DNA of 64,000 nt from an uncultured Alphaproteobacteria bacterium. Its GTDB lineage: Bacteria; Pseudomonadota; Alphaproteobacteria; CAAHEQ01; UBA3637. A program made the translations under genes and the position numbers. The stretch is from NCBI GenBank assembly GCA_947586835.1, contig CANPXT010000005.1, positions 3,327 to 67,326 on the forward strand, given 5' to 3'. Below, piece after piece: positions 12,617 through 63,887 of the stretch (its first letter is position 1; the number at the start of each line of letters is the position of its first letter). Below the pieces are notes generated by a model. The model was not told the origin of the DNA. It saw only the letters and a program-made list of their open reading frames with translations, and made no database searches.

Positions 12617-14122
12617 ATGGAAAAATTAATTTGGGAAGCCCTTCGTAAAAACCCTTTTACGGATGATTCGATGCAAAGAGTACAACTATTAAAACAAGCG
12701 CTTAATAACGGTGCAAATCCGAACGTTATTCATCCGAAAAAAGGCTTCACACCTCTTCTTTGTGCCATTTTCGGACATCAACCGCAAATGGTAAAAGTTC
12801 TCATTCAACACGGAGCCGACATTAACCTTGCCTGTCAGAAAATAACGCCTTTGGAAGCAGCCATTCAATCTCATTCGCATGATTGTTTGAGTTTATTGCT
12901 GCAAAATAATGTTCAGCTTTATCCGGATAATATGAATCCCATTACTTATGCAATCGCTCACCATAATTTAACGGCTGTCTGGCGCTTGGAAGATGCCGGT
13001 GTTGATATTAATAAACCGTCGGGTCTTGACCAAAACACACCATTAATGTGTGCCGTTTTATTTGAAGATGATGCCCGATATACTTATAACATATTACAAC
13101 TGAAACCCAACCCGAACATTGCGGATCGTGAGGGGAACACACCCCTTTTTGCGGCTATTTGCAAACAATCGATTGAAAAAATCGATTTACTGCTTGAAGC
13201 AAAAGCCAATGTTAATCACAGCAGCAATTTAGGCTTTACACCGCTTTTCTTTGCCGCATGTATCGGAAACGAACGTATTGTTTCAATGCTCCTTCATGCC
13301 GGTGCTGATGTGCATCATCGCGATCATAACGGTGAAACGGCTTTACATGTTACTGCCAATATGCAAATTGCCAATTTATTGATAAAAGCCGGTGCTGATA
13401 TAAAAGCCCAAAACAAACGCGGATTCACGCCGTTCATAACAGCCGTTCAAAACGGTGCTGACGATGTTGTTCAATACTATATACAACAGGGGCAAAATGT
13501 CAATATAAGAGATAACTTCGGAAATTCCCTTCTGATGACTGCCATTTCCCATCAACAACCCTCAGTTACGAAAACTTTAATTCGCGCACATATTAATCTT
13601 GATACGCAAAATCGAGACGGATATTCTCCGCTGATTTATTCCGTTATATCCAATCAACCGAAAATAACTTATCAATTAACAAAAGCGGGGGCAAATATTC
13701 ATTTAACCGATCGAAAAGGAAACAATGCCTTAATTTATGCGATTCAACAAAAAAGTTTGGCATCGGCAAAAGTTTTGCTGGAACACGGTTCCGATCCGAA
13801 CAGCTATGATTTTAAAGGCAGTTCCGCTTTAATGTTAGCTCTTGTCAACACGCCGGAAATTGTGCCGCTCTTAATTCAAAAAGGAGCCGATATAAATTGC
13901 AAAGATGATAACGGTTTTACACCGCTTATGATAGCGGCTTGCATGAAAGACAAACAAAACGTTAAGAATCTTTTAAATGCGGGCGCAGATGTTTCCGCTG
14001 TCAATCCGGCCGGACAAACTTTCCGAAACATCAGCAATTTCGGCGTTAAACTAACCTATTGTCAGCACATTCTGCCCCAAAAACTTAAATCTGTTTTTTC
14101 AAAGCAACAAAATCAACGATAA
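12617..14122 (+). CDS. Ankyrin-repeat protein (about 14 repeats)
   Basis: Reiterated G.TPL..A.......v..LL..GAd.n units across the full 501 aa. Confidence 0.9.
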   Translation: MEKLIWEALRKNPFTDDSMQRVQLLKQALNNGANPNVIHPKKGFTPLLCAIFGHQPQMVKVLIQHGADINLACQKITPLEAAIQSHSHDCLSLLLQNNVQLYPDNMNPITYAIAHHNLTAVWRLEDAGVDINKPSGLDQNTPLMCAVLFEDDARYTYNILQLKPNPNIADREGNTPLFAAICKQSIEKIDLLLEAKANVNHSSNLGFTPLFFAACIGNERIVSMLLHAGADVHHRDHNGETALHVTANMQIANLLIKAGADIKAQNKRGFTPFITAVQNGADDVVQYYIQQGQNVNIRDNFGNSLLMTAISHQQPSVTKTLIRAHINLDTQNRDGYSPLIYSVISNQPKITYQLTKAGANIHLTDRKGNNALIYAIQQKSLASAKVLLEHGSDPNSYDFKGSSALMLALVNTPEIVPLLIQKGADINCKDDNGFTPLMIAACMKDKQNVKNLLNAGADVSAVNPAGQTFRNISNFGVKLTYCQHILPQKLKSVFSKQQNQR

Positions 14123-29040: not shown

Positions 29041-29793
29041 TTATTTTAAATATTCTTCCACACGCTCTTTCAATTGCGTTATGGCTTGCTGACGCGCAAA
29101 TGCATCGGCATTACCCTTTTTCGGATAAACCGTATCCATAAAGGTATTATACGCATCAACCGTTAAGACTTCACGCGCCGTTTCTTGCATTTTGCGCTGT
29201 TTCCAAAGGCTGCCCGTTTTCATCAAAGATGCTTTCTTTTCGGGGGGAACTTGATACGTTTGTAAAATAACACGCGCTTCATTATCTGTTTTATGAACGG
29301 TCGGATAATACCATTTTTGAGCAGCATCTTCCTGTGCTAAAGTTAATAACACATACGGATGCAACATTTCACCTTTAAACGGCATGTTTTTTTCTTTCAT
29401 CACAGCTTGTATTTGATCCATGTATGATGCCAACGTTTCACGTTCGGATTCTTCGGAATCCATTTTCAACAAAACTTTTGCCAATGCTACCTGAGCGGTG
29501 GCATTTCCGTTTTCTGCCGCCAAATGATAAAACAACAACATCTTCATAACATCTTGATGGCTTTGATTTTGCTTATTTTGATAAAAACGCGCCAACCAAA
29601 ATTGCGATTCTTCATCATTTTCATTTACGGCACATTGAGAAAAATCGGCAATTGCCTGTTTCTGATTTCCCTGACTTAATGCCTTTTGAGCTGCAACACA
29701 TTGAGCATAAGCAGGAAAAGCAAATACGCTTGAAAAAATAATTCCAATCGATAAAAGACGGCAGAACGTAAAAATATATTTTATTTTATTCAT
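29041..29793 (-). CDS. Secreted Sel1/TPR-like repeat protein
   Basis: Signal peptide ending AYAQC. Sel1-type units are present (A..W.A..Y, AAENGNATAQVALAKVLL). Confidence 0.65.
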   Translation of the reverse strand: MNKIKYIFTFCRLLSIGIIFSSVFAFPAYAQCVAAQKALSQGNQKQAIADFSQCAVNENDEESQFWLARFYQNKQNQSHQDVMKMLLFYHLAAENGNATAQVALAKVLLKMDSEESERETLASYMDQIQAVMKEKNMPFKGEMLHPYVLLTLAQEDAAQKWYYPTVHKTDNEARVILQTYQVPPEKKASLMKTGSLWKQRKMQETAREVLTVDAYNTFMDTVYPKKGNADAFARQQAITQLKERVEEYLK

Positions 29794-31672
29794 CAAAAAC
29801 AACCTCCACATGACTTACTTGTTCCGGTGCCGGAACAACACTTGAAAAAAAGGCTTGAACGGAATTACCGTCAATTTCCGGTTGAGATAAAATAATGCGT
29901 TTTCGTGCAACCGGCATATCATTTTGATCATAAACAACAGCTTTTAGTTGCGGAATCACAACTTTTGTCAATTCCGTATTGACAACAACGCCTTTAATCA
30001 TCAGACGCAAAACACCTGCTTCATTTTGCGAGATTTCATAAGCAATATCTTGTATTTTTAAAATACGATTTGCTTCGGTTGTGTTGAGTTGTTTAGCTTT
30101 TATCGGCTCACCGACCGTAAAGACAGGATTATTTTCCGTTTCAGTCGTCAATGCTTGCTGTTGCATCGGTGCTTGTATGGATTGTTGCAAAGCTTGCTGC
30201 GGTGTCGGAGCCGACTGCTGCGCCTGTTCTGACTGAGGCACCGCTGCTTGCGGCTGTGCTTCTTGCGACGGCTGTAGCGTCGGCTGTGGCGTCGGCTGTT
30301 GTTGAGGTTGTTGTGCCGAAGATGACGGTTGCAACGACTGTGGCATCGGTTGTTCCGAAACTTTCACCGGTTCCGATGTTGCCTGATCTTTCGAAGGTGA
30401 TTCTTCCGCTGTTTGAGCATTATTTTCCGATGAAGTCGGCTCAGATTCCGATGTTGCTGAGGCTTCACTTAATATGGCTCGCGACAAATGATGTTCGGCT
30501 GCCAATGCAGCTACTTCATTTTCCAAGTTTTCTTCCGCTGCCCCTTGTTCCAATTGTTCATCCAACAATTTCGCTGCTGTTTTTGCTTGTTCGGATGAAT
30601 TTTCCGAATTTAAAGATGTCGGCTGTTGCACCTGTTCCGAAACCGGCTGTTGCGCCTGTTCCGATTGTGACGTCGCTGCTTGCGGTTGTTCTGCTGCTTG
30701 CGACTGTTCTTCTTGCGCCGATTGTTGCGCTTTGGCTTGTTGAGCCATTAATCGGGTTGGCTTCGGTGCTTGTGCCATTTGTTGATTCATGGCCACTTGC
30801 GGAACTGGCTGAACTGCCGATTCCGACTTTGATACCGATTTTGTATCCGCCGGTTGCGTTTCTTGGGCAGACTCTTTGGCACTTGATTGCACTTTTTCTT
30901 CACCGGCTGTCGGTTTTTCCGACTTTATCGGCGGAAGCGACTGAGACTGATCACCCGAATTATTTTGAATCTGTTGAGATGTTTTCGACGTCGGTTGCAA
31001 ATCTTCGGCTTGATTAATTTTGTTATTTTTTTTGACCGAAACAGTTTTTTTCTCTTTCGAAACATAATTTTTATCTAATTTCGAAACGATAAAATCTTCC
31101 GTTTTTTCCATAAACGGATATTGTGTCAACAAATAAAGGGAACCGTAACAAATACCGCCTGCCACACATAACCAGAAAAGCGCACTGATAACGGAAGTTT
31201 TTTTCTTTTTTGTTTCCACCGGTTTAAAAGCTTCCGGCAATGCATCTAACCGATCGGAATCCTGTGGTGTTTCATTGGCCAACAAAGCAAGCGAATCGGC
31301 ATCGGAAAAAATCGGATCCGCTCTTTTGACATTTTGATTTGACTCCGAAAGAGGCGGATTTATATTTTCATTTACTTTATTCGATTCGTTTTTCTCATCA
31401 ATTTTTTCATCGGATTCGGTTGATGATGAATTTATTTCAGGCACCGAAACCATTTCTTCATACTGCCCGCCTGCTTCATTCATCACGGCCGAAACGGTGG
31501 GAATTTCCTCATCTTCCGAGGAAGCATCATCGCCGTAAAACCCAGTCTGACGCTCACTTCTTAAGGTAAAATAGTTTCCACAGGCAGAGCAATGAAACTT
31601 TTGTCCTTCGGGTACTTTAATCTCATCTGAAATGACATATTGTGTAAAACATTTTGGACATATAACTAACAT
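29786..31672 (-). CDS. ZitP-like protein: MJ0042-type zinc ribbon, one TM helix, long Q/P/S/E-rich low-complexity region, DUF3426-like C-terminus
   Basis: MLVICPKCFTQYVISD...FHCSACGNYF (CPxC...CxxC). TM helix VISALFWLCVAGGICYGSLYLL. C-terminal beta-rich domain LRLMIKGVVVN...VEVVF. Confidence 0.6.
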   Translation of the reverse strand: MLVICPKCFTQYVISDEIKVPEGQKFHCSACGNYFTLRSERQTGFYGDDASSEDEEIPTVSAVMNEAGGQYEEMVSVPEINSSSTESDEKIDEKNESNKVNENINPPLSESNQNVKRADPIFSDADSLALLANETPQDSDRLDALPEAFKPVETKKKKTSVISALFWLCVAGGICYGSLYLLTQYPFMEKTEDFIVSKLDKNYVSKEKKTVSVKKNNKINQAEDLQPTSKTSQQIQNNSGDQSQSLPPIKSEKPTAGEEKVQSSAKESAQETQPADTKSVSKSESAVQPVPQVAMNQQMAQAPKPTRLMAQQAKAQQSAQEEQSQAAEQPQAATSQSEQAQQPVSEQVQQPTSLNSENSSEQAKTAAKLLDEQLEQGAAEENLENEVAALAAEHHLSRAILSEASATSESEPTSSENNAQTAEESPSKDQATSEPVKVSEQPMPQSLQPSSSAQQPQQQPTPQPTLQPSQEAQPQAAVPQSEQAQQSAPTPQQALQQSIQAPMQQQALTTETENNPVFTVGEPIKAKQLNTTEANRILKIQDIAYEISQNEAGVLRLMIKGVVVNTELTKVVIPQLKAVVYDQNDMPVARKRIILSQPEIDGNSVQAFFSSVVPAPEQVSHVEVVFDE

Positions 31673-47416: not shown

Positions 47417-49393
47417 TTAATAACACATCGTAGTTGACTGTCTCACCTCTTTTTTCGCGCAACACCAGCTGCCTTTCCATTCGCCATTGGCATTCTCACA
47501 ACATTCTTGTCTTCTCTTCTTGGTTAAAAAATCCTTGGATGAGTCCTTTTCACAACAAATGTTTGATTTTGAGTTCCATGAGGCAGTTATATTTGCTTCA
47601 CAACATTCTTTATCTGGCTTGCCATCATAACTCTTCCCGTTGTTGCAACAGTTTTCTGTATCTATTGCTCCGGTGGAAACATTTATCGACCCAGAGCAAC
47701 AAGTATAGTTGCGACCTATCGAACCAACACCTTTAGTGCAACATTGTGTAGTATACTCTTGAGTTTGCATATTGCGACCCTTATTATCGCAACAAGTACT
47801 TTCAACCCACGTACCGTCTTCAGCGTTACAGCATTTCTCATCAACCATACCAGTTGCTACATTTTTGATACCTTCACAACAAACACCATCATGCCAATTG
47901 CCTTTAGGACAACATGTTTCAGCAGGTTCATCCGTTGCTTGATCAATGATTCCCTGACAACAAATCTGCTCTTGTGCATGCCATTCACCATCACAACAAT
48001 TCTGATCTAGTTGACCGGTCTCTACATTAACACCATCCTTACAACAAGTCTCATTAATCACCGTAGCCTCTTGATCCACTTTCTGACAACATACCGGATC
48101 AACAGTATCTGTTCTCAAATTTTTTATGCCTATACAACAACTCAGAGAGTCCTCCAGCCACGTGCCACCACCAGGATACTTTTCGCAACACTCTTTAGTA
48201 GGCTCTAAAGTAGACGCATCCTTACCTTCACTGTTACAGCATGTAGTACCACCCCAATAATTTGTTGATGTCTCATCTTGCTCACAACACCATACACTCT
48301 GCTGATTTGTATACAAATTAATAGCTGAGTTTTCTTGACAACAAACCCCCGCGTCCTCAATATAAGTCCCACCGTTTTCTTTACAACAAGTACCGTCATC
48401 CTCCAAATCATGATGGGAAACACTTCTTTTCGGTTTATAACCATCACAGCAACCGGCCTTATCAATCTGACCTGTATACACATTCATTGCATTATTGCAA
48501 CAATGCCAACCGGTCCACACGCCACCATAATCTCGACATTTCTTAATATTGTACGGCTCATCATCGGGATCCGAATCATCGGGGTCCGAATCATCGGGAC
48601 CGCCCGGGTCGTCCGGATTATCAGGGTCGCCCGGGTCGTCCGGATCATCCGGGTCATCAGGATCACCCGGGGTATGGCTTTCAAGAGGCACACGTTCATA
48701 TCCCGGTCCCGTTCCGTCATCATCAGCCACACCAAAAGCTTCAGCATAATATAACACCAAAGCATTATGCCCTGCATCTTTAAAATTCACCGTTGATGTT
48801 TTTTCGTTCTTGCCGATTTCTTCTTGCAAAGCTGACCGGCGCACAAACCCGCTGTGAGCATTTTCAAATTTCATACAGTCTAAGTTTTGTAATGCAACAC
48901 AATCCGGCGTCGGATATAAAGTTGTTCCGTTTTTGTCAATACCGGCACAGGTTTCACCCCAATCGCCGCTCTTAATGCTCTCGCAAACTTCTCTCGAAAT
49001 ACCGCGAATTCGAACCGTATATCCCCTATCGTCTTCAATTCGCACCTGAACCGGCGAGCCGATTGCCGTTGTAAAATCATCTTCACGCGTATCATATTTT
49101 GTGGAAACAACCGAGTTCGGCTTGACAACACAGGGGGTTTGAGGAAAACCGTCACACTTATAAACATAATTTTGCATTAACTCAGCCGTTCGGGCACCGG
49201 CCGTTGCCACGCTGAATGCGTGAACCGTTTCATTTTCTTTATAAATTTGCATGGCATACTGTATGCCGACAACACCAATAACGGATAACACGCCGATAAT
49301 CGCCAAAACGCACAGCATTTCAACCATTGAGCGCCCTCTTTCAATTAAATAGATACCGCTCTTCTTTTCGCGTTGATATTCCGACTTTTTCAT
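47417..49393 (-). CDS. Prepilin-like N-terminus + globular domain + Asp/Pro linker + 373-aa CC (vicinal cysteine) repeat array; novel surface protein
   Basis: The ATG at 49393 gives MKKSEYQREKKSGIYLIERG/RSMVEMLCVLAIIGVLSVIGVVG, with Gly at -1, Glu at +5 and a hydrophobic helix. There are 23 CC dipeptides at 9-20 aa spacing, bounded by single Cys residues. Confidence 0.7.
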   Translation of the reverse strand: MKKSEYQREKKSGIYLIERGRSMVEMLCVLAIIGVLSVIGVVGIQYAMQIYKENETVHAFSVATAGARTAELMQNYVYKCDGFPQTPCVVKPNSVVSTKYDTREDDFTTAIGSPVQVRIEDDRGYTVRIRGISREVCESIKSGDWGETCAGIDKNGTTLYPTPDCVALQNLDCMKFENAHSGFVRRSALQEEIGKNEKTSTVNFKDAGHNALVLYYAEAFGVADDDGTGPGYERVPLESHTPGDPDDPDDPDDPGDPDNPDDPGGPDDSDPDDSDPDDEPYNIKKCRDYGGVWTGWHCCNNAMNVYTGQIDKAGCCDGYKPKRSVSHHDLEDDGTCCKENGGTYIEDAGVCCQENSAINLYTNQQSVWCCEQDETSTNYWGGTTCCNSEGKDASTLEPTKECCEKYPGGGTWLEDSLSCCIGIKNLRTDTVDPVCCQKVDQEATVINETCCKDGVNVETGQLDQNCCDGEWHAQEQICCQGIIDQATDEPAETCCPKGNWHDGVCCEGIKNVATGMVDEKCCNAEDGTWVESTCCDNKGRNMQTQEYTTQCCTKGVGSIGRNYTCCSGSINVSTGAIDTENCCNNGKSYDGKPDKECCEANITASWNSKSNICCEKDSSKDFLTKKRRQECCENANGEWKGSWCCAKKEVRQSTTMCY

Positions 49394-49459
49394 AGACCGT
49401 CCCTTTCGTCTGTTCCTTTTAAACGGGAATTTACAATTTTCCCCATATACCTGATTTGT

Positions 49460-49488
49460 ATAATAACAAATTCTGAAAGAAACGTCAA
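49460..49488 (-). promoter_or_regulatory. Sigma70-like promoter (TTGACG-17-TATTAT on the minus strand) for the CC-repeat gene
   Basis: -35 is the reverse complement of 49483-49488. -10 is the reverse complement of 49460-49465. It lies in the 137-nt gap after uppS. Confidence 0.45.
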
Positions 49489-49530
49489 TGCTTTTTTTCA
49501 AAAAAAATAAATGTTTTTTTCTTTTTTTAC

Positions 49531-50247
49531 TCAAACTTTTTGTTTATTTTCTAAACCGCCATAGCGCCGTTGGCGTTTTTGATACGATTCCAACGCTTCA
49601 TCAAATGCCGTTTCATTAAAATCCGGCCATAAAACAGGCGTGAAATATAATTCCGCATATGCCATTTCCCACAGTAAAAAATTACTGATTCGCTCTTCAC
49701 CGCTCGTACGAATCACCAAATCAGGCGCGGGCATACGAGTCGTTGACAAATGCGCCGCGAAAGTTGTTTCGTCAATATCATCGGGCGTCATCTGCCCGCT
49801 CGCTGCTTTTACCGCCAGTTGACGCGCGGCATTGATTATATCGTCTCGCGCTCCGTAACTGATTGCCAAAACAACGTGAAAACCTTGAAAATCAGCCGTT
49901 TGACTTTCTAATCGATTCATTTGTTCTCTTAAATCAGGCGCCAACTTTTCGCGCGCACCGATAAATGAAACCCGAATGCCCTTTTTTACCAATTCTTTCA
50001 CGTCTTCTTTCAAATAAGCGCGAAATAAATCCATTAACGTTTGCACTTCTTCTTTCGGACGTTTCCAATTTTCCGATGAAAATGCAAAAAGCGTTACAAC
50101 TTCAATGCCTTTCTTTTGCGCATATGTTAAAACTTTTTTTAAAGTTTCGGCGCCCGCTTTATGTCCTGCCGTTCTTGGTAATCCGCGCTTTTTCGCCCAA
50201 CGCCCGTTTCCATCCATAATAATCGCTATGTGCTTTGGTAAATTCAT
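49531..50247 (-). CDS. uppS: Undecaprenyl-diphosphate synthase
   Basis: HIAIIMDGNGRWAK, AFSSENW, RTSGE.R.SNFLLW. Confidence 0.92.
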   Translation of the reverse strand: MNLPKHIAIIMDGNGRWAKKRGLPRTAGHKAGAETLKKVLTYAQKKGIEVVTLFAFSSENWKRPKEEVQTLMDLFRAYLKEDVKELVKKGIRVSFIGAREKLAPDLREQMNRLESQTADFQGFHVVLAISYGARDDIINAARQLAVKAASGQMTPDDIDETTFAAHLSTTRMPAPDLVIRTSGEERISNFLLWEMAYAELYFTPVLWPDFNETAFDEALESYQKRQRRYGGLENKQKV

Positions 50248-52271: not shown

Positions 52272-54962
52272 TTATTTGATGGCTCCGTGACAATGCTTAT
52301 ATTTTTTGCCCGATCCGCAAGGACACGGTGCATTTCGGGGAATTCGTTCGTCAATCCCGTCAAACGAATTGCCGGAAGTTGCTTGCGCCCACATGGAATC
52401 GCTTTGCGGATTCGACCGAAACGGCGTTTCCTGTTGCGCTGCCACTGCCGATTGCGGCAACGGGTGACTTTCTTGTGTTTGAACCGGCGCACGTTCTTGA
52501 ATTTGAAATTGCATGTGGCAAATCACCTGCGTAACTCTCTCGCGCACGCGCGATAACAGATTCTCAAACAAAATAAATGCTTCCCGTTTATATTCATTCA
52601 ACGGATTTTTTTGCCCGTATGCCCGTAAATTAATGGCTGTTTTCATAAAATCAAGCGTTTGCAAATGTTCTTTCCATGATTGGTCAATCACCTGAATTAA
52701 AATGCTTTTTTCCAAATGATGGCGCACATCTTCGGGCAAAATTTTCATCTTTTCCGCAACCGACTTATCTGCTTCGCTTTGTAACCGTTCCACCATGGTT
52801 TCGGGAATCATGCCCGGTTCTTTAATCCAAGCGGCAAACGGAACATCAATGCCCAACAAACGTCGTGTTTGATTCTCTAAATCTGTCGCGTTCCAATTTT
52901 CGGGAACGGATCGACTCGGCGCCAATGCATAAACCATATTCTCAATGCAATCATCGCGCATTTCTTTTAACGTTTCCGTTACCGATTCAGCCACCATCAA
53001 TTCTTTGCGCTGTTCATAAATTACTTTACGCTGATCATTCATCACATCATCGTATTTCAACAAATTTTTACGCACGTCAAAGTGATATGATTCCACCTTG
53101 CGTTGTGCAACGGCAATGCCTTTGCTTAAAAACGAATGCGCCAACGCTTCCCCTTTTTTCATACCCATGGTTTTTAGCATTTGTTGAATGCGTTCGGAAC
53201 CGAATATGCGCATCAAATCATCTTCCAGAGAAATATAAAATCGCGATAAACCCGGATCACCCTGACGACCTGATCTTCCGCGCAACTGATTATCGATTCG
53301 CCGACTTTCATGCCGTTCGGATCCCAACACATACAATCCGCCGGCAGCCAAGGCAATTTCTTTTCCTTTGGCAATTTCCGCCTTAATTTTGGCAGATAAT
53401 TTTTCTTTATTTGCCGTCGGATTTTTTTCCAATTCTTCCGCCAAACGCATTTCAAAGTTACCGCCCAACTGAATATCCGTTCCGCGTCCCGCCATATTCG
53501 TTGCAATGGTCACGGCACCCGGTACGCCGGCTTGCGCTACGATTTTTGCTTCCTGCTCATGATGACGAGCATTCAACACGTTAAATTGAATATCGGAGCG
53601 TTTGCGTAGCAAATCTGCTAAAATCTCCGATTTTTCAATCGACGTCGTACCGACTAAGATCGGCTGTTTTCTTTCATGCGCGGCTTTAATTTCTTCAATA
53701 ATGGCATCATATTTTTCTTCTGCCGTGCGATAAATCACATCGTTTTCATCTTTTCGAGCTGATGGCTTATTGGTTGGAATTTCAATCACTTCCAAATGAT
53801 AAATACTGTCAAACTCACCGGCTTCCGTCATAGCCGTACCCGTCATACCTGCCAATTTCGGATACATTCGGAAGTAATTTTGGAACGTAATGGAGGCCAA
53901 TGTTTGATTTTCAGCCTGAATGGTCACACCCTCCTTGGCTTCAATGGCTTGATGCAAACCGTCGGAATAGCGCCGACCTTCCATCATACGCCCCGTAAAT
54001 TCATCAATAATAATAACCTGGTCATTTTTCACGATATAATCTTTATCCCGCGTGAATAAAACATGCGCTTTTAAAGCCTGATCCACATGATGTACAAAGG
54101 CAATATTTTGCGTATCATATAATGAACCTTGGATTAATCCCGCTTCCTGCAATAAACCCTCAACAAACTCCGTACCGGCTTCCGTCAACGTTGCAGTACG
54201 GTGTTTTTCATCTTTTTCATAATGCTCGGGACGTATGGAGCGCATCAGCCTGTCCACTGCAATATACCGTTCGGACGAATCTTCCGCCGGACCGGAAATT
54301 ATCAAAGGCGTTCGGGCTTCATCAATTAAAATCGAATCGACTTCATCGACAATGGCATAATAAAACGGCCGTTGCACCATATCTTTTAATTCAAAGCGCA
54401 TATTATCCCGCAAATAATCAAATCCCAACTCATTGTTGGTGGCATAAGTTATATCTGAATTATATGCGGCACGTCGTTCTTCAACAGTTAAATCATGAAC
54501 GATACAACCGACACTTAATCCCAAAAAGCGATAAATCTGCCCCATCCATTCACTGTCACGTTTAGCCAGATAATCGTTTACCGTCACCACATGAACGCCT
54601 TTTCCCGTTAAAGCATTTAAATAAACCGGTAACGTAGCAACCAATGTTTTACCCTCACCGGTACGCATTTCGGCAATTTGCCCGTTATTCAAAATAATAC
54701 CGCCCAACAGCTGCACATCAAACGGACGCAGACCCAATGTTCTTTTCGCTCCTTCCCGAACGCTGGCGAAGGCTTCCGGCAACAGGCTTTCCAACGATTC
54801 GCCGTTTTGAATGCGCGTTTTATATTCTTGCGTTTTATCACGCAATTGATCATCGGTTAATTTTTCATAAGAGGCTTCCAATTCATTAATTTTGGCGATT
54901 GTTTTTTTAAATTTGCGCAAATATCTGTCATTTGCCGACCCAAACAGTGATTTTAATATCAT
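52272..54962 (-). CDS. secA: Preprotein translocase ATPase SecA
   Basis: [39 protein letters not shown]-terminal [14 protein letters not shown] zinc finger. Confidence 0.95.
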
Positions 54963-55077
54963 TTCCATCCTTTCATATTTCAATTGATTTATATGAAATA
55001 ATCTATTTTTAGCCGAAAGTCAACCCTTGAACGATATATTTTGCATATTATTCAATGCAGCCGCTGTTAAATTAATG

Positions 55078-55860: not shown

Positions 55861-56820
55861 TTAATCATCCTCTCGTTTGTAAAGCATTCCTCGAATAATG
55901 TTATTTAATGTACCACTGCCGGCCTCCAAAAGATAATCCGTTAATTTATTGCTTTTACTCCATCCGCCCCATTGATACGATCCGAAAAGCGCCGTCTGTA
56001 ATAAGCCGCCGACAGAGTGTGCCAAATCTAATTTCGTTCCCAGCAAAACCGTACACCCCGCTTTCGCAAACAATGCACCTTGTGTTTCGGCTTCCTTGCA
56101 ATCAAGACCCGCCTGTTGCGTATAAATCATTTCCGCATCCGAAAGCTGTGTTTTAATTTCGTTAATTTGCGCCAAATCTGCCGGATTATAGGGATTATAA
56201 GCCGGCGTATCAATTAAAATCACATCATGTGATAATCTTAAAACGGTTACGGTTTCATTAAGTCTTGCCAAATCATTCAAACATGTGCAAACAATATTCA
56301 TCCAACCGGCCGATCGTTCCAATTCGGCCGCACCGCATACCTTTTGCCGATCCAGTGTGATACATGCCACTTTTAAGCGGTTGGATTTTGCTTGAAAAGC
56401 CGCTTTGATAAGGGCGGTTGTTTTTCCGCTGCCGGCCGATCCCAAAAAAACATAAACATCATTTTTTTTAAGAGGTGCAATTGATTTATAAACATACATT
56501 TCTTCCAAAGCGGTTACCAACCACTTTTCTTCCGTTAATTTAACGCTTTTACGCGAAAGAGCATTTAAAAGTCGTTCATAATATGAATCAAAAACACCGT
56601 GGGATGCCAACAAATTTTGAAAATAAGCCGCTCGCTTTTGTCGAATTTCTTGATCAAGCGAATTTTGTTCCGGATTATTTTCTTCAATGGCAACAACTAA
56701 CCGAACTTGATGATTGGGCAAACGTCCCGATGAGATAATGACGGCATTTTCGCCGAATGTTTGTTTAACGGCCATCATGGCTTCGGGAATGTTGTCGGCA
56801 AAAAATGTTTTCAGTTTCAT
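55861..56820 (-). CDS. flhF: SRP-type GTPase FlhF (divergent G3 motif)
   Basis: N-terminal MKLKTFFADNIPEAMMAVKQTFGENAVI, G1 GSAGSGKTT, G4 TKLD. The G3 position reads DTPA instead of DTAG. Confidence 0.7.
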   Translation of the reverse strand: MKLKTFFADNIPEAMMAVKQTFGENAVIISSGRLPNHQVRLVVAIEENNPEQNSLDQEIRQKRAAYFQNLLASHGVFDSYYERLLNALSRKSVKLTEEKWLVTALEEMYVYKSIAPLKKNDVYVFLGSAGSGKTTALIKAAFQAKSNRLKVACITLDRQKVCGAAELERSAGWMNIVCTCLNDLARLNETVTVLRLSHDVILIDTPAYNPYNPADLAQINEIKTQLSDAEMIYTQQAGLDCKEAETQGALFAKAGCTVLLGTKLDLAHSVGGLLQTALFGSYQWGGWSKSNKLTDYLLEAGSGTLNNIIRGMLYKREDD

Positions 56821-58700
56821 AACATCTTTCCTTTACATTTTCGGGTATCAATTAACAATTGCGCCCGTTGAATTATTTTGGCTTGAGCTTCTTCGGTTTT
56901 TTGTATGTTTTCAATACCGAAAGCCGTTGTTTTTTGTAAGATTTCAACCCATTTTTTCGGCTCAATCACGCGAACAAAAGCTTCTTTAACGTTATCTCCT
57001 GCCTGACTTAACGCAGCGACCAGCGTTTCTTCATCAATGTGTTTTAAAAGAGTTTTTAAATCTGTTTCGCTCCAAAAGGAAAAGTCATCAAACGTGATGA
57101 GTCGCTTCGACAATATTTCGGCTGTCTGCGGAGCCGTTTGCGCCATATATGACAATAATTTTTTGCGCCGAATTATCTCCGTTAAACTCAAAATGGCAGC
57201 TGCTTTTATTTCACCCGAAGAAACCGGTTTTAACTTTTCATCAATCGAGAAAAAAGAAAAAACAGGCGATTGAAAATCTTCATTATTAAAAGCGCTGATT
57301 CGCAACAAAATTTCTGCCGCCAATCGAAAAGACAACGGCTTTAACACACGCGTTGCTTTTTCTGTTGACAATCGATAAAGAAGCTCAGCCGATGTTTGCG
57401 GATATTCATGCGATAAAAAAGCGCTTATTTTGCTATCAGGCACTTTATTTAATTTTTCCCACAACGATTTTCCGAAAACAGGCTTATTTAACTCTTTAAT
57501 TAAGGCTTGGGCGCGTTCTTTCGTTAAGTTTGCACGCAAAAGCGCTTTTGTTTGTTCTTGAGGCGGAACAATATCTTGCGGATGAAGCATTTGTCGATAA
57601 AAGCGCATTAAAATCGGATGAATATCAATGGCTTTGACACTACCTAATCCGGCTATGATATGTAAAAAGGTTTTCATTTCGGCATCACTCATTTGCTTAA
57701 ACATAAGTTGAACGCACTGATCCCCCAAACAAAGCAAAATAATGGCGGCTTGTTGCGCCGGAGAAAACAAGCTGTCATGGTTTGACTTAAAAGATGAATG
57801 ATCATACAATCGACAGCGCAATGCATTCACGGCAATTTCCGGCATTTGAACACAAACCGTTTGAACACGTGAAATTAAATTTTCTTCAAGATCTCCGATT
57901 ATTTGATGACGAAACATATTATTCGTTTCTTTAGGACGAACAAGTGAAAAATTCATTTTTTTCCGATAATGTCGCATCAGCCACAGCCAACACGCATATA
58001 CCAGCATGACTAATCCGGCAACGGTTATTAAAGCTACTGCGATTATTTGCCGATATTGAATTTTTTGAAAAGCAATCGGCGCAAATGACAAGGCGGACGG
58101 GAAGTCAACAACTTGAAACGTATCTCCTCTTTGCGGATTATACCCAATCATCATTTGCACATTTTTCAACAAATTGTTTTTTTTGAGCTGAAAAAATTGA
58201 TTACGTTGTTTATCAGTCGTTTCTGCAAAAAAAACAAACGCATTTAACTTTTTAACATGATATTTTGTGACTTGCGTCACGATTTTCCGACTTGTCTGAC
58301 CGGGCAATGAATAATTTTCGTTTACCTCATCGACCGACACAGTGGGTGTTACTTTTTCTTCAATCGTTTTCTTTTTTTGAATCTCTAATTCCGCCCGAAC
58401 CACCGCTTTGACGGATTCTTCCCCCAGAAAAGGCACAAAAACGGCTTGAATTTTTTTTTCGAGATACGAATCATATTGCGATTGCAGTAATGTATTTTCT
58501 TTAGGCAGTGATTTTTCGACAATTTGATGAATAAATTTATTTTGTTGAGCAACCGAAGGGACTTGATACCGCAATGACGGCGAAAAATAGCCGATACCGG
58601 CGACAACAAATGCACCGAAAACAATAAAAAAATATTTAACAAGCTTTTTTGACAAAGCGCAATCCCTTAACCAAATTTGATTGCGTATATTTTCGCTCAA
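56817..58700 (-). CDS. Fusion of a truncated FliF (MS-ring, C-terminal periplasmic part plus TM2) with full-length FliG (rotor/switch)
   Basis: FliF-like: YLEKKIQAVFVPFLGEESVKAVVRAELEI ... GYNPQRGDTFQVVDFP ... TM helix. FliG-like: AAIILLCLGDQ, FLSHEYPQTSAELLYRLS..KATRVL, LKTLLKHID.ETLVAALSQAG, EEAQAKIIQ. Non-ATG start (TTG at 58700, or TTG at 58655 after AAGGGA). Confidence 0.65.
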   Translation of the reverse strand: MSENIRNQIWLRDCALSKKLVKYFFIVFGAFVVAGIGYFSPSLRYQVPSVAQQNKFIHQIVEKSLPKENTLLQSQYDSYLEKKIQAVFVPFLGEESVKAVVRAELEIQKKKTIEEKVTPTVSVDEVNENYSLPGQTSRKIVTQVTKYHVKKLNAFVFFAETTDKQRNQFFQLKKNNLLKNVQMMIGYNPQRGDTFQVVDFPSALSFAPIAFQKIQYRQIIAVALITVAGLVMLVYACWLWLMRHYRKKMNFSLVRPKETNNMFRHQIIGDLEENLISRVQTVCVQMPEIAVNALRCRLYDHSSFKSNHDSLFSPAQQAAIILLCLGDQCVQLMFKQMSDAEMKTFLHIIAGLGSVKAIDIHPILMRFYRQMLHPQDIVPPQEQTKALLRANLTKERAQALIKELNKPVFGKSLWEKLNKVPDSKISAFLSHEYPQTSAELLYRLSTEKATRVLKPLSFRLAAEILLRISAFNNEDFQSPVFSFFSIDEKLKPVSSGEIKAAAILSLTEIIRRKKLLSYMAQTAPQTAEILSKRLITFDDFSFWSETDLKTLLKHIDEETLVAALSQAGDNVKEAFVRVIEPKKWVEILQKTTAFGIENIQKTEEAQAKIIQRAQLLIDTRKCKGKML

Positions 58701-61118: not shown

Positions 61119-62573
61119 TTACTTAACAATTTTAGAACATATACATTGATCGTTTCCATAAAAGGCAATCGACCCTTCCGGACAATTGATTTCATCGGCA
61201 CACCGGTGTTCACACACTTTACCAAACACGTTTTCCGGACATTCACATGCGCAGACTCCGTTTTTATAAACAGCTTTTCCGCCATTAATGCAATTAATTT
61301 GATTGGCGCAATTCATTTCGCATGTATCACCAAAATAACCGCTGTAACATTCGCATCCGCAGGCTCCGTTTTTATAAACGGTATAACCGTAATTACAGGT
61401 ATTTGTACATTTTTGAGAACAATCTTCGCCATAATAGCCGTTATAACATTCGCATCCGCATCCTTCCGGTTTATAGACCCGATATCCCGACTTGCAAACA
61501 TTTAAACATTGAAAAGAACAATTCTCGCCGAAATAACCTTGATTGCATTGACAAAAACTCTGTCCGTTTAAATAAACGCGTTGCCCTTGCGGTGCATACT
61601 GAGACGTACCGCACGGCAACAGAGCCATAGATTGCTCACAATTTTTTCCGAAAAATCCCTCTGCGCACTCGCAAAAACCGTACCCGTGTATTTCACCGTG
61701 TCCGCTGCATTCCTGACTTTTATCCGTTAATTCACAACGCCGACCGTAAAAGCCCTCTTGACAATCGCATCCGCCCCCCAGTTTACTTTCTACCGAAGCA
61801 TTATACCAATAAAAATCTTTTCCGTGTCCGTTACATACATCTCCGCTCGGATCAAACTGTTCGCAATGTTCGCCGAAATAACCCATCATGCATCTTTGGC
61901 AACTGCATGTCGGATTAAATTCGACGGCAGTGGCATGTCCGTTACAAAAAGTATCAATCGTACATAATTCCCGCTGAGCCGACACATAGCACCTACCGTT
62001 TGAATCTTGGCTGTCATAACCGGCTGCGACATCGCATTTTTGACATCTGTTTCCGGTATATCCCGGCTCACAAACACATTTTTCACCGTTCCATGTACCG
62101 AAAATCGTACATCCTTCAACATCAGCATCAGCATGTGCGGAAAGATTATTTTTAAACGAGTAAGTAATTGATTCGCACTTTCTGTTCACGATATTCGGCA
62201 AAACTTCATAGGGCAAAGACCAATTCCACGCGGCTAACTTTCGACATTCGTTTAACGACAAACCCTTAATTTGAATCGTAAAGTGATCTTCATACCCTAC
62301 GGCCGTATAATAGTAGCCTGATTTTAAATTTGCGCCTTTTTCCAACACGCTTCCTTCCGTGGGAATCATAGCCATTTGTTGCATACGAATTGAAAAATCG
62401 TTTGATAAAAATTTCAGCTCATCGATTACATTATCACAATGCCGATAAGTCATAAAAAAACTATATGCCCACCAACCAAAGAACAAAACAGCAAACCAAA
62501 TCGCAACCGTACGCACAAAATCTTTGGCAGTCATACCCAATTGTTCAGATTGTTTTTTAAATTGCGCTTTCAT
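61119..62573 (-). CDS. Membrane-anchored protein with eight tenascin/teneurin-type EGF-like repeats (eukaryote-like)
   Basis: AAGGAG RBS lies before the ATG at 62573. TM helix VAIWFAVLFFGWWAYSFF. Repeats: CVCEPGYTGNRC, CDCQEGFYGRRC, CECAEGFFGKNC, CQCNQGYFGENC, CECYNGYYGEDC, CECYSGYFGDTC, CECPENVFGKVC and CSCQRCMMGYFGEHC, several preceded by C.GHG. Confidence 0.75.
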   Translation of the reverse strand: MKAQFKKQSEQLGMTAKDFVRTVAIWFAVLFFGWWAYSFFMTYRHCDNVIDELKFLSNDFSIRMQQMAMIPTEGSVLEKGANLKSGYYYTAVGYEDHFTIQIKGLSLNECRKLAAWNWSLPYEVLPNIVNRKCESITYSFKNNLSAHADADVEGCTIFGTWNGEKCVCEPGYTGNRCQKCDVAAGYDSQDSNGRCYVSAQRELCTIDTFCNGHATAVEFNPTCSCQRCMMGYFGEHCEQFDPSGDVCNGHGKDFYWYNASVESKLGGGCDCQEGFYGRRCELTDKSQECSGHGEIHGYGFCECAEGFFGKNCEQSMALLPCGTSQYAPQGQRVYLNGQSFCQCNQGYFGENCSFQCLNVCKSGYRVYKPEGCGCECYNGYYGEDCSQKCTNTCNYGYTVYKNGACGCECYSGYFGDTCEMNCANQINCINGGKAVYKNGVCACECPENVFGKVCEHRCADEINCPEGSIAFYGNDQCICSKIVK

Positions 62574-62834
62574 ATGCGAACTCCTTATAAACACCTGTTA
62601 TATTCCGTTATATTTGCAAAAAGTATAACACTCATTGGAAAGAGAATCAACAATATATTTCAGAAATCATCATTTTTTTATAACAAAAGCGGAATCAACA
62701 ATTGAATTTTCACGAAAAATCTGTTTTTTTTAAGAATAATCACTGTCTAAAAAGACAGCATACCGAAAATGCATTCGTGATTTTGATTTTCAGTAACAGG
62801 GCACCCGTGCGTTACGATTTTGACAACAACAAGA

Positions 62835-63887
62835 TTAAAACCACCACCAACTTGTTGTCTCTGCCGTTGTAGCCGGAGTGTGCGTAGTTGTGTTGATCGG
62901 CATTGTCTGATTATTATTCGTTGTTGTATTGGTTGTCGTGGTCGTCGTCGTTTTACCTGTAGTAGTCGTTGTGCCCTTTGAATTTGTCGTCGTTGCCCGC
63001 GTGGTCGTTGTTGCCCGCGTGGTCGTTGTCGCACGTGTAGTTGTTGTAGTCGTATGCGTGGTTGTTATCGGCGTCGGCGTTCCCGTTGTCGTTATTGGCG
63101 TCGGGGTTTGCCTGCTCCTCGTTGTAGTCGTATGCGTGGTTGTTATCGGCGTTGGCGTTCCCGTTGTCGTTATTGGCGTCGGTGTCTGCGTGCTCGTTGA
63201 CGTTGGAGTCGTCTGTTCCGGCGTCGTCTGTATCGGTGTTGTTACCGATGTCGTCGATGGCGTCGTAGTCGTCGTTGTCCATGTCGTAGTCGTCGGTGTC
63301 TGCGTTGTTGACGTTGATGTCAGTGTTGACGTTGACGTCGGCGTTTGCGTTGTTGACGTTGATGCCCGTGTTGACGTCGACGTCGGTGTCTGCGTTGTTG
63401 ACGTTGATGTTAGTGTTGACGTCGACGTCGGTGTCTGCGTGGTCGTTGACGTTGGAGTCGTCTGTTCCGGCGTCGTCTGTACCGGTGTTGTTGACAACGA
63501 TGTCGTCGTTGGCGTCGTAGTCGTCGTTGTCCATGTCGTGGTCGTCGGCGTCGGCGTTGTTGACGTTGATGTCCGTGTTGATGTCGACGTTGGCGTCGGG
63601 GTCTGTGTGCTCGTCGTTGATGTCGACGTCGGCGTCGGTGTCTGCGTGCTCGTCGTTGTGGTAGACGTCGGCGTCGGTGTCTGCGTGGTCGTTGACGTCG
63701 GAGTCTGTGTACTCATCGTTGTGGTTGTTCCCCCCGGAGTTGTGGTTATGGTTGTACATTTCCCGTCATAGAATACGTCACCAAGTTCCTTTACTTTACA
63801 ACACTCGTCTAAGCTGTCATAATCATGCTCCTCCGGGTGTTTCAGAACATAGTCGCAATATTCTATGATCAATTTTAATGCTGTCAT
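62835..63887 (-). CDS. Thr/Pro/Ser-rich mucin-like repeat protein (no evident signal peptide from this ATG)
   Basis: The longest frame over the repeat DNA has a non-repetitive N-terminus (MTALKLIIEYCDYVLKHPEEHDYDSLDECCKVKELGDVFYDGKC), then about 300 aa of T/P/S repeats ending SWWWF. Confidence 0.55.
   Translation of the reverse strand: MTALKLIIEYCDYVLKHPEEHDYDSLDECCKVKELGDVFYDGKCTTITTTPGGTTTTMSTQTPTSTTTQTPTPTSTTTTSTQTPTPTSTSTTSTQTPTPTSTSTRTSTSTTPTPTTTTWTTTTTTPTTTSLSTTPVQTTPEQTTPTSTTTQTPTSTSTLTSTSTTQTPTSTSTRASTSTTQTPTSTSTLTSTSTTQTPTTTTWTTTTTTPSTTSVTTPIQTTPEQTTPTSTSTQTPTPITTTGTPTPITTTHTTTTRSRQTPTPITTTGTPTPITTTHTTTTTTRATTTTRATTTTRATTTNSKGTTTTTGKTTTTTTTNTTTNNNQTMPINTTTHTPATTAETTSWWWF
62995..63720. 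repeat. Nested imperfect tandem repeats (units of about 15, 45, 78 and about 250 bp) inside the Thr-rich gene
   Basis: 15 bp x3 near 62995-63040 (TTTRA x3). 78 bp x2 from about 63043 and 63121. 45 bp x3 at 63303-63437 (QTPTSTST.TSTSTT). Long copies of about 105 bp at about 63198 and 63448. Confidence 0.8.

Follow-up and report, generated by a model that had tools for sequence, protein, structure and literature searches.

Modular pilins consist of a pilin module and a grafted functional module that is probably exposed at the pilus tip; those with grafted adhesive modules include Streptococcus sanguinis PilB (a vWA module) and PilC (a lectin module), as well as CofB of enterotoxigenic Escherichia coli (ETEC), and CofB and GspK have both been discussed in this context (Raynaud et al. 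2021, PMC8179133). Here, we analyzed a 64-kb stretch of contig CANPXT010000005.1 from an uncultured alphaproteobacterium (hereafter, the window) and a 484-amino-acid (aa) protein that it encodes, in which a type IVb (T4b) pilin-like module is followed by a cysteine-rich array of epidermal growth factor (EGF)-like repeats. We are inclined to read this protein as a modular T4b-type pilin that presents a disulfide-rich rod of EGF-like repeats and probably acts as a minor adhesin at the tip. A T4b-class N-terminal module with a large C-terminal extension is likewise found in ETEC CofB, in Vibrio cholerae TcpB and in PilV of the R64/Salmonella thin pilus. TcpB, CofB and PilV are each encoded once, inside a pilus operon, and their C-terminal domains are beta-rich folds, not EGF arrays. 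The C-terminus of PilV is shufflon-variable, and the constant N-module with a variable C-terminal part that we describe below parallels the PilV variants, except that variation here comes from a dispersed multigene family and not from DNA inversion.

The proposed logic is that of S. sanguinis PilB and PilC, a pilin acting as the carrier that presents a binding module on a filament. In the window protein, an N-terminal pilin-like module (residues 1–150) is joined to an independent, non-pilus EGF-like array (residues 151–484), the composition that defines a modular pilin. Unlike PilB and PilC, the cargo is an EGF-like repeat array, the pilin module is T4b-like with a degenerate signal, the gene lies outside a pilus operon, and the family has expanded into many paralogs per genome. 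An EGF architecture is absent from the text and the examined supplements of the modular-pilin paper (PMC8179133), and our search for literature on EGF-bearing pilins, or on pili in gut RF32 Alphaproteobacteria, found nothing specific.

On profile evidence, residues 1–150 appear to be a diverged T4b pilin module homologous to PilS/bundlin-type pilins. A profile search with this N-domain retrieved more than 6,500 proteins, most of them 150–330 aa long and many with precomputed PilS or Bundlin domains; every match with a source name came from an Alphaproteobacteria metagenome-assembled genome (MAG). When aligned family members were scanned singly with Pfam, PilS was detected in 22 of 67 (best 1.8e-18), Bundlin in 21 of 67, N_methyl in 12 of 67 (best E value 4e-4) and TcpA in 4 of 67, with paralogs scoring 13.5–13.8 bits on N_methyl (PF07963), under the cut-off of 21.2. 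Alignment of six EGF-family N-domains against 21 PilS-positive short pilins with hhalign gave a probability of 93.8% and an E value of 1.7e-7 over 112 columns, and the match extended into the globular head, including the conserved Cys and the head motif F-x-I-x-x-x-G-[LI]-x-x-x-E-C ... W. The short-pilin profile in turn matched the solved structures of BfpA (1zwt, 2.6e-16, across the globular domain), PilS (1q5f, 2.9e-5) and TcpA (3.1e-5), and it also matched CofA; through this profile, the N-module of the window protein can be linked transitively to solved pilins.

A leader ending in Gly with Glu at +5 is the textbook class III (prepilin) signal. Paralogs of the window protein have basic leaders of 9–32 aa ending in G and followed by RSMVEMLGVLA, forming the canonical signal G↓RSMVEMLGVLAIIGVLS (the arrow marks the putative cleavage site), and distant relatives (in MAGs SIG53, RGIG7750 from buffalo rectum and human SGB_6327) all have a leader ending in Gly, followed by RSMVEMLGVLAIIGVLSVGG. 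The signal of the window protein has diverged (QLG↓MTAKDFVRTVAIWFAVLFFGWW), as it has in close orthologs (G↓MAVKEL and G↓LTVKEL). Among six orthologs, Gly at −1 and an acidic residue (Glu or Asp) at +5 are invariant and adjacent positions vary; across the family, Cys110, Trp118, Pro121 and Cys133 are invariant. An AlphaFold2 (AF2) model of the N-domain (67 sequences; predicted local distance difference test score, pLDDT, of 84.5) has a 51-residue helix at residues 16–66 (pLDDT >90), a five-stranded sheet and a short helix at 107–114, a predicted arrangement that corresponds to the pilin "lollipop" layout. A first-pass annotation, made from the letters of the window, had described this region as a transmembrane helix and a domain of about 110 aa. 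Both elements exist; what they form is a T4b pilin-like module and not a generic anchor with a domain, which alters how the array is likely to be displayed.

The C-terminal 334 residues are EGF-like, of teneurin/tenascin flavor, and built from non-canonical units. All eight cysteine motifs listed in the first-pass annotation are present (residues 166, 223, 269, 301, 341, 374, 407 and 443), and six of the eight match the strict form C-x-C-xx-G-[FYW]-x-G-xx-C; of the two deviating copies, CSCQRCMMGYFGEHC has a 3-residue insertion and CECPENVFGKVC has V-F where G-[FY] is expected. In 20,000 composition-preserving shuffles of residues 150–484, a segment with 46 Cys and 45 Gly, the strict motif occurred 0.002 times on average and at most once, so that the six observed copies are far beyond chance. 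The accompanying motifs were also correctly reported, with CNGHA at residue 210, CNGHG at 247 and CSGHG at 289. The array had further been said to follow the tenascin-type pattern exactly. Its EGF-like character of teneurin/tenascin type holds up in Pfam and Foldseek comparisons, but no copy in the array matches the full pattern C.GHG.C..G.C.C..G[FWY].G..C, because the Cys after GHG (C3) and its partner C1 are absent. The canonical six-Cys EGF spacing (C1-C3, C2-C4, C5-C6) is matched neither by the units of residues 238–352 nor by those of residues 353–454.

The proposed check against Pfam EGF profiles came out differently for different parts of the protein. Over all 484 aa, EGF_TEN gave an E value of 2.6e-13 and 50.6 bits, under the gathering cut-off of 65, and EGF_Teneurin gave 15.5 bits against a cut-off of 24.3. 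Residues 151–352 alone exceeded the cut-offs (in brackets) of EGF_Teneurin with 29.2 bits (24.3), EGF_laminin with 28.3 (21) and EGF_2 with 22.9 (22.1), and residues 353–484 alone matched EGF_TEN with an E value of 1.5e-4. Two paralogs scored well above these thresholds: L010 reached 156 bits on EGF_TEN, 130 bits on EGF_Teneurin in nine stretches and 77 bits on EGF_2, and L004 reached 75.9 bits on EGF_TEN. The full-length AF2 model, built from an alignment of five sequences, has a mean pLDDT of 58.8, with repeated beta-hairpins in residues 340–480 (pLDDT 65–87). Foldseek searches with this model of pLDDT 58.8 returned only EGF-array proteins as top matches (DLL1, Notch1, Jagged-1, NELL2, Del-1 and WIF-1; E values 6.7e-9 to 1e-3, probability up to 1.0), and a sequence search of the PDB with the full protein gave only weak EGF matches (WIF-1, E 0.003; teneurin-2, E 0.005). 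The array thus shares with metazoan teneurin/tenascin EGF arrays (EGF_TEN PF25024, EGF_Teneurin PF23106, EGF_2 PF07974) the C-x-G-H-G ... C-x-C-xx-G-[FY]-x-G-xx-C signature, contiguous tandem units and Foldseek matches. It differs from them in that its middle units have four Cys and lack C1-C3, its C-terminal units shift one Cys into a CxCxC strand, its full-length Pfam score stays under the gathering cut-off, and its context is bacterial and periplasmic.

Related genes pair a similar carrier with other cargoes. Seven paralogs in MAG SIG53 share 94% identity across their first 150 mature residues and only 35% across the Cys-rich remainder, and other family members carry differing Cys-rich tails. 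The window itself encodes a second pilin-like protein of the same superfamily. Its N-terminus is canonical (G↓RSMVEMLCVLAIIGVLS) and is followed by a long acidic Pro/Asp linker (DPDDPDDPDDPGDPDNPDDPGGPDDSDPDDSDPDDE) and by galaxin-like di-Cys "CC" repeats that span about 350 aa; in Pfam, these repeats score 51.8 bits (cut-off 28) on Galaxin_repeat, a coral skeletal-matrix type, whereas N_methyl matches the protein only weakly. As these sequences show, paralogs keep the carrier constant and vary the cargo, with the two modules evolving independently. MAG SIG53 (SUUT01; loci L004, L007, L009–L013 and L017) contains at least eight EGF-type pilin paralogs, accompanied by other pilin-like genes, with as many as four in a 20-kb locus. 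Conservation among the SIG53 paralogs reaches into the sequence immediately before the start codon ("KGCIM"); taken with their conserved N-modules, this suggests that the 5' part was recently duplicated or gene-converted.

Machinery for a T4b pilus was found elsewhere in the lineage. In a scan of metagenomes seeded with short pilins, a 560-aa secretion ATPase was encoded 3.5 kb upstream of a pilin in 11 of 79 loci; its matches at NCBI come from Alphaproteobacteria MAGs and "Proteobacteria bacterium CAG:495", and its JGI label is bfpD. One locus, L043 (human gut metagenome contig OPXC01000105, 1356–11736), has the gene order TcpQ-like, secretin, PilO, a 479-aa protein without assignment, T2SSE, T2SSF, two PilS/Bundlin pilins and a second, shorter T2SSE, and by its gene content is a complete-looking T4b pilus cluster. 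Going by such loci, related gut Alphaproteobacteria have T4b pili built from this pilin family. Flanking the L043 cluster are a thioredoxin/redoxin-like gene and a trio encoding a VWA protein, a PP2C phosphatase and a protein kinase. About 170 kb of MAG SIG53 yielded no pilus machinery. Scans for the Walker A motif of secretion ATPases and for prepilin-peptidase motifs detected neither in the window or the first 24 loci (about 424 kb); only later metagenome loci gave a positive result, and there only for the ATPase.

We infer cleavage, pilus incorporation, a tip location and an adhesive function for the window protein, in the following scheme. Residues 1–150 would be the carrier, made up of a short basic leader that ends in Gly13, an acidic residue at +5, the long hydrophobic alpha1 and a small disulfide-bonded beta-sheet head. 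Residues 151–484 would be the cargo, in which about 23 disulfides hold about nine EGF-like units in a stiff rod. The alpha1 helix would first insert the protein into the inner membrane, after which the Cys-rich array would fold oxidatively in the periplasm; a need for oxidative folding, already suggested in the first-pass annotation, is a reasonable inference. Prepilin peptidase would then cut after Gly13, and a T4b pilus would take up the pilin module, most plausibly as a minor pilin of low abundance placed at the tip, so that the EGF-like rod may project from the filament and act as an adhesin towards surfaces of the host or of microbes. That the protein takes part in host interaction is plausible.

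Several observations weigh against reading the protein as a modular pilin. The class III signal of the window protein is degenerate (G↓MTAKDFVR), with Asp for Glu at +5, Lys at +4 and Arg at +8, and neither the protein nor its N-domain has an N_methyl, PilS or Bundlin match in Pfam or NCBIfam. Foldseek with the N-domain model found no significant match in the PDB (the best pilin was Clostridioides difficile PilW, 7t31, with an E value of 0.14 and a probability of 0.84); the pilin assignment therefore rests on sequence profiles and not on a fold search. The full-length AF2 model is shallow, with pLDDT <50 across residues 143–340. Neither the window nor the ortholog contigs contain a gene for pilus machinery or prepilin peptidase, the gene stands isolated among housekeeping and flagellar genes outside any pilus biogenesis operon, and what connects the protein to machinery comes from other lineage members, not from its own genome. 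Pfam found no Peptidase_A24 in the L043 cluster or its flanks. Finally, a rigid cargo of 334 residues would need to pass through the secretin.

These points also bear on the main alternative, in which an exapted pilin module serves as a plain membrane anchor: the protein would be bitopic in the inner membrane, its helix uncleaved, and would keep an EGF-like rod in the periplasm, where it might serve as an envelope spacer or a binding scaffold, without ever entering a filament. The degenerate signal of this subfamily, the missing N_methyl match, the isolated position of the gene and the lack of nearby machinery would all fit such an anchor, as would the hydrophobic stretch, which is rich in Trp and Phe (WFAVLFFGWWAYSFF) like ordinary transmembrane anchors. 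However, a plain anchor would not need Gly at −1 and an acidic residue at +5, which all six orthologs have kept despite changing neighbors, the whole globular pilin head is conserved, including its disulfide pair, and the canonical paralogs are clearly prepilin-like. We regard this alternative as unlikely, though deserving of serious attention.

The gene itself is real, native and under purifying selection. It lies in a minus-strand open reading frame (ORF) of 61119..62594, with its start ATG at 62573 and its stop codon at 61119–61121, and an identical protein is present in a public collection (P0001). Orthologs with 72–79% identity are encoded on three rabbit-gut alphaproteobacterial MAG contigs (L001–L003) and one Logan contig (L021) in syntenic arrangement, with the shared gene order EGF protein, small outer-membrane protein (OMP), rluD, FliF-FliG fusion, flhF, flhG and secA. 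In the window, the gene is flanked by a Thr/Pro-rich ORF on one side and by the OMP, rluD and flagellar genes on the other, a setting kept in L002, L003 and L021. Measured against two orthologs, the ratio of nonsynonymous to synonymous substitution rates (dN/dS) is 0.11–0.12 for the whole gene, 0.15–0.19 for the N-domain and 0.09–0.10 for the Cys-rich part, compared with 0.026 for SecA and 0.06–0.19 for other neighboring genes. We dropped the reading of the gene as an artefact or pseudogene, given the intact ORF, strong ribosome-binding site, conserved synteny and a dN/dS of 0.11. GC content (41.5%) and third-position GC content (GC3, 36.7%) equal those of surrounding genes (window mean GC 39.7%); the first-pass annotation had proposed a comparison with neighboring genes as a check, and a compositional sign of transfer was likewise dropped, because the two are indistinguishable.

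An exhaustive search of 1.84 billion representative sequences with residues 150–484 (phmmer) gave 95 matches at E<=1e-3, bearing out the view that such arrays are rare, and seven at E<=1e-30. Six of these seven are pilin-EGF relatives; the seventh is a protein of the limpet Patella vulgata (XP_055957938, P0131; 2,007 aa, automatically named Notch), which matches with 34% identity and an E value of 6e-37 and contains 32 units of the CxCxC type that also occurs in residues 353–484. Among weaker matches, eukaryotic proteins are mixed with Myxococcota proteins ending in MYXO-CTERM-like tails, one of which, Polyangiaceae MCL2779095 (P0139), scores 137 bits on EGF_Teneurin. The nearest relatives of the 484-aa protein form a paralogous family in gut Alphaproteobacteria, and the best matches outside it are the limpet protein and Myxococcota proteins, none of them mammalian and none close. 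Myxococcota surface proteins such as P0139 have the same four-Cys unit, C-x-G-H-G-x6-7-C-x-C-x8-C, in long tandem arrays; they differ in carrying a Sec signal and a C-terminal sorting tag, other N-terminal domains (beta-helix, RCC1) and no pilin module, and they belong to a different lineage and habitat. By these matches, this type of EGF-like array is rare but not unique to host-associated bacteria.

The first-pass annotation had taken the domain to be eukaryote-derived and possibly acquired from the host, and one could extend this to a horizontally acquired EGF protein that mimics host EGF-repeat ligands to manipulate host signaling. EGF_TEN and EGF_Teneurin-type repeats are overwhelmingly eukaryotic in Pfam, and they score here; the best match outside the family is the metazoan one from P. 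vulgata; relatives of the window organism live in animal guts; and the window also encodes a large ankyrin-repeat protein besides the galaxin-like one. We nonetheless consider host mimicry improbable. The GC and GC3 values are those of the neighbors, synteny is conserved in four related assemblies, and dN/dS is low (about 0.11). The closest eukaryotic match comes from a mollusc, not a mammal, and its 34% identity is driven by Cys/Gly spacing, Myxococcota proteins with MYXO-CTERM-like tails have four-Cys arrays that are just as similar, and the units here lack the C1-C3 disulfide of the canonical domain. Recent acquisition from a host is not supported, because there is no close donor and the composition is native. 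Ancient transfer or convergence may lie behind the array, and none of our tests requires ancient transfer. That the protein is instead a secreted or outer-membrane-anchored structural protein using another export route (Sec with unknown surface anchoring), its pilin resemblance being coincidental, is very hard to credit: Foldseek gave the N-domain no significant pilin match and no curated model matches it directly, but the profile–profile link to PilS/bundlin pilins (E 1.7e-7) extends beyond the helix, continuous intermediates lead from canonical prepilins to the window protein, and MKAQFKKQSEQLGMTAKDF shows no evident Sec-type cleavage site or lipobox.

Table 1. Features of the 484-aa pilin-like protein, its gene and a related gene in the window
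Feature	Residues	Window coordinates	Strand	Basis
484-aa pilin-like protein with C-terminal EGF-like array		61119..62573	minus	complete gene, ORF list
Shine-Dalgarno AAGGAG		62581..62586	minus	7 nt upstream of ATG, direct sequence reading
Candidate sigma-70-like promoter, TTGATT-17-TATACT plus extended TG		62622..62650	minus	consensus scan; tentative
Short basic leader, MKAQFKKQSEQLG, with Gly13 as its last residue; G13↓M14 is the putative prepilin cleavage site	1–13	62535..62573	minus	Gly13 invariant in every alignment
Predicted alpha1 helix of pilin module; Asp18 at +5 (Glu in orthologs); hydrophobic stretch 22–41	14–66	62375..62534	minus	AF2 and alignment to canonical G↓RSMVEML pilins
Predicted globular head: five-stranded sheet, short helix 107–114, invariant Cys110-Cys133 pair	67–150	62124..62374	minus	AF2 and family alignment
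Five irregular EGF-like units of 27–60 aa, 4 or 8 Cys each; three with C-x-G-H-[GA]	151–352	61518..62123	minus	unit dissection and Pfam
Unit, 27 aa, 4 Cys	151–177
Unit, 60 aa, 8 Cys	178–237
Three 4-Cys units, 32–43 aa, C1 and C3 absent	238–352
Three regular six-Cys units and truncated terminal unit	353–484	61122..61517	minus	unit dissection
Three regular 6-Cys units, 33–36 aa, C-x3-C-x11-C-x-C-x-C-x8-C (CxCxC core)	353–454
Truncated terminal unit	455–484
Second pilin-like gene, same superfamily		47417..49393 (ORF 47417..49534)	minus	motif scan; aligns with N-module

The coordinates of these features are collected in Table 1. The promoter and terminator scan near the 484-aa gene gave no more sites than expected from shuffled sequence, and an NCBIfam scan of the 484-aa protein, four orthologs and a neighboring gene gave no usable match. 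Evolutionary rates of adjacent genes are strongly uneven between the window and L002: relative to their orthologs in this rabbit-gut MAG, SecA (52272..54983) is 97% identical, the EGF pilin-like protein 78% and the FliF-FliG fusion 65%. The fusion is apparent in a 627-aa ORF (56817..58700, minus) that combines a C-terminal segment of FliF with the N, M and C domains of FliG (Pfam) and is kept in L002 (617 aa) and L021 (611 aa). The reduced-genome Rs-D84 relatives are non-flagellated (PMC12306168); unlike them, the window encodes flagellar genes.

Reading the translated ORFs of the window by eye, with no domain search, we recognized genes for aminoacyl-tRNA synthetases, SecA, FtsY, FtsE/X, LptB, Pfk and an ankyrin-repeat protein. 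The last of these, a 501-aa protein (12617..14122, plus) made up of little else than ankyrin-type repeats, adds to the eukaryote-like repeat proteins of this genome. Upstream of the 484-aa gene, a 350-aa mucin-like ORF (62835..63887, minus) is Thr/Pro-rich (TQTPTSTST repeats), ends in WWWF, has 53% GC and stop codons just upstream of its ATG, and has no Pfam or NCBIfam match; at the equivalent position, L002 (5809..6303) encodes a different, 164-aa repeat protein with NSLPPTP repeats. A 628-aa protein (29786..31672, minus) has an N-terminal zinc-ribbon-like CxxC...CxxC motif followed by several hundred low-complexity residues rich in Gln, Pro, Ser and Ala.

Beyond the single protein, these comparisons raise the possibility, which we hold tentatively, that gut RF32-like Alphaproteobacteria carry a previously undescribed adhesin-repertoire system, in which dozens of dispersed genes per genome would combine a near-constant T4b pilin carrier with divergent, eukaryote-like, disulfide-rich cargoes (EGF-like, galaxin-like and other Cys-rich). 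One T4b machine could then be tipped with interchangeable rods, and the window protein would be one diverged member. If true, this adhesin repertoire would be the multigene-family counterpart of the PilV shufflon. If the window protein is indeed a modular pilin, its tandem EGF-like repeats would be a cargo class of unusually large size that has not been described previously for such pilins. Because comparable arrays occur in Myxococcota and the gene looks native, eukaryote-like EGF repeats in bacteria need not imply recent transfer from a host. The modular-pilin reading would also mean that gut Alphaproteobacteria, which are uncultured and poorly known, are investing in an expanded family of disulfide-rich surface modules carried on pilins, and it would provide a concrete, testable handle on how common but unstudied gut bacteria attach to mucus, epithelium or other microbes.

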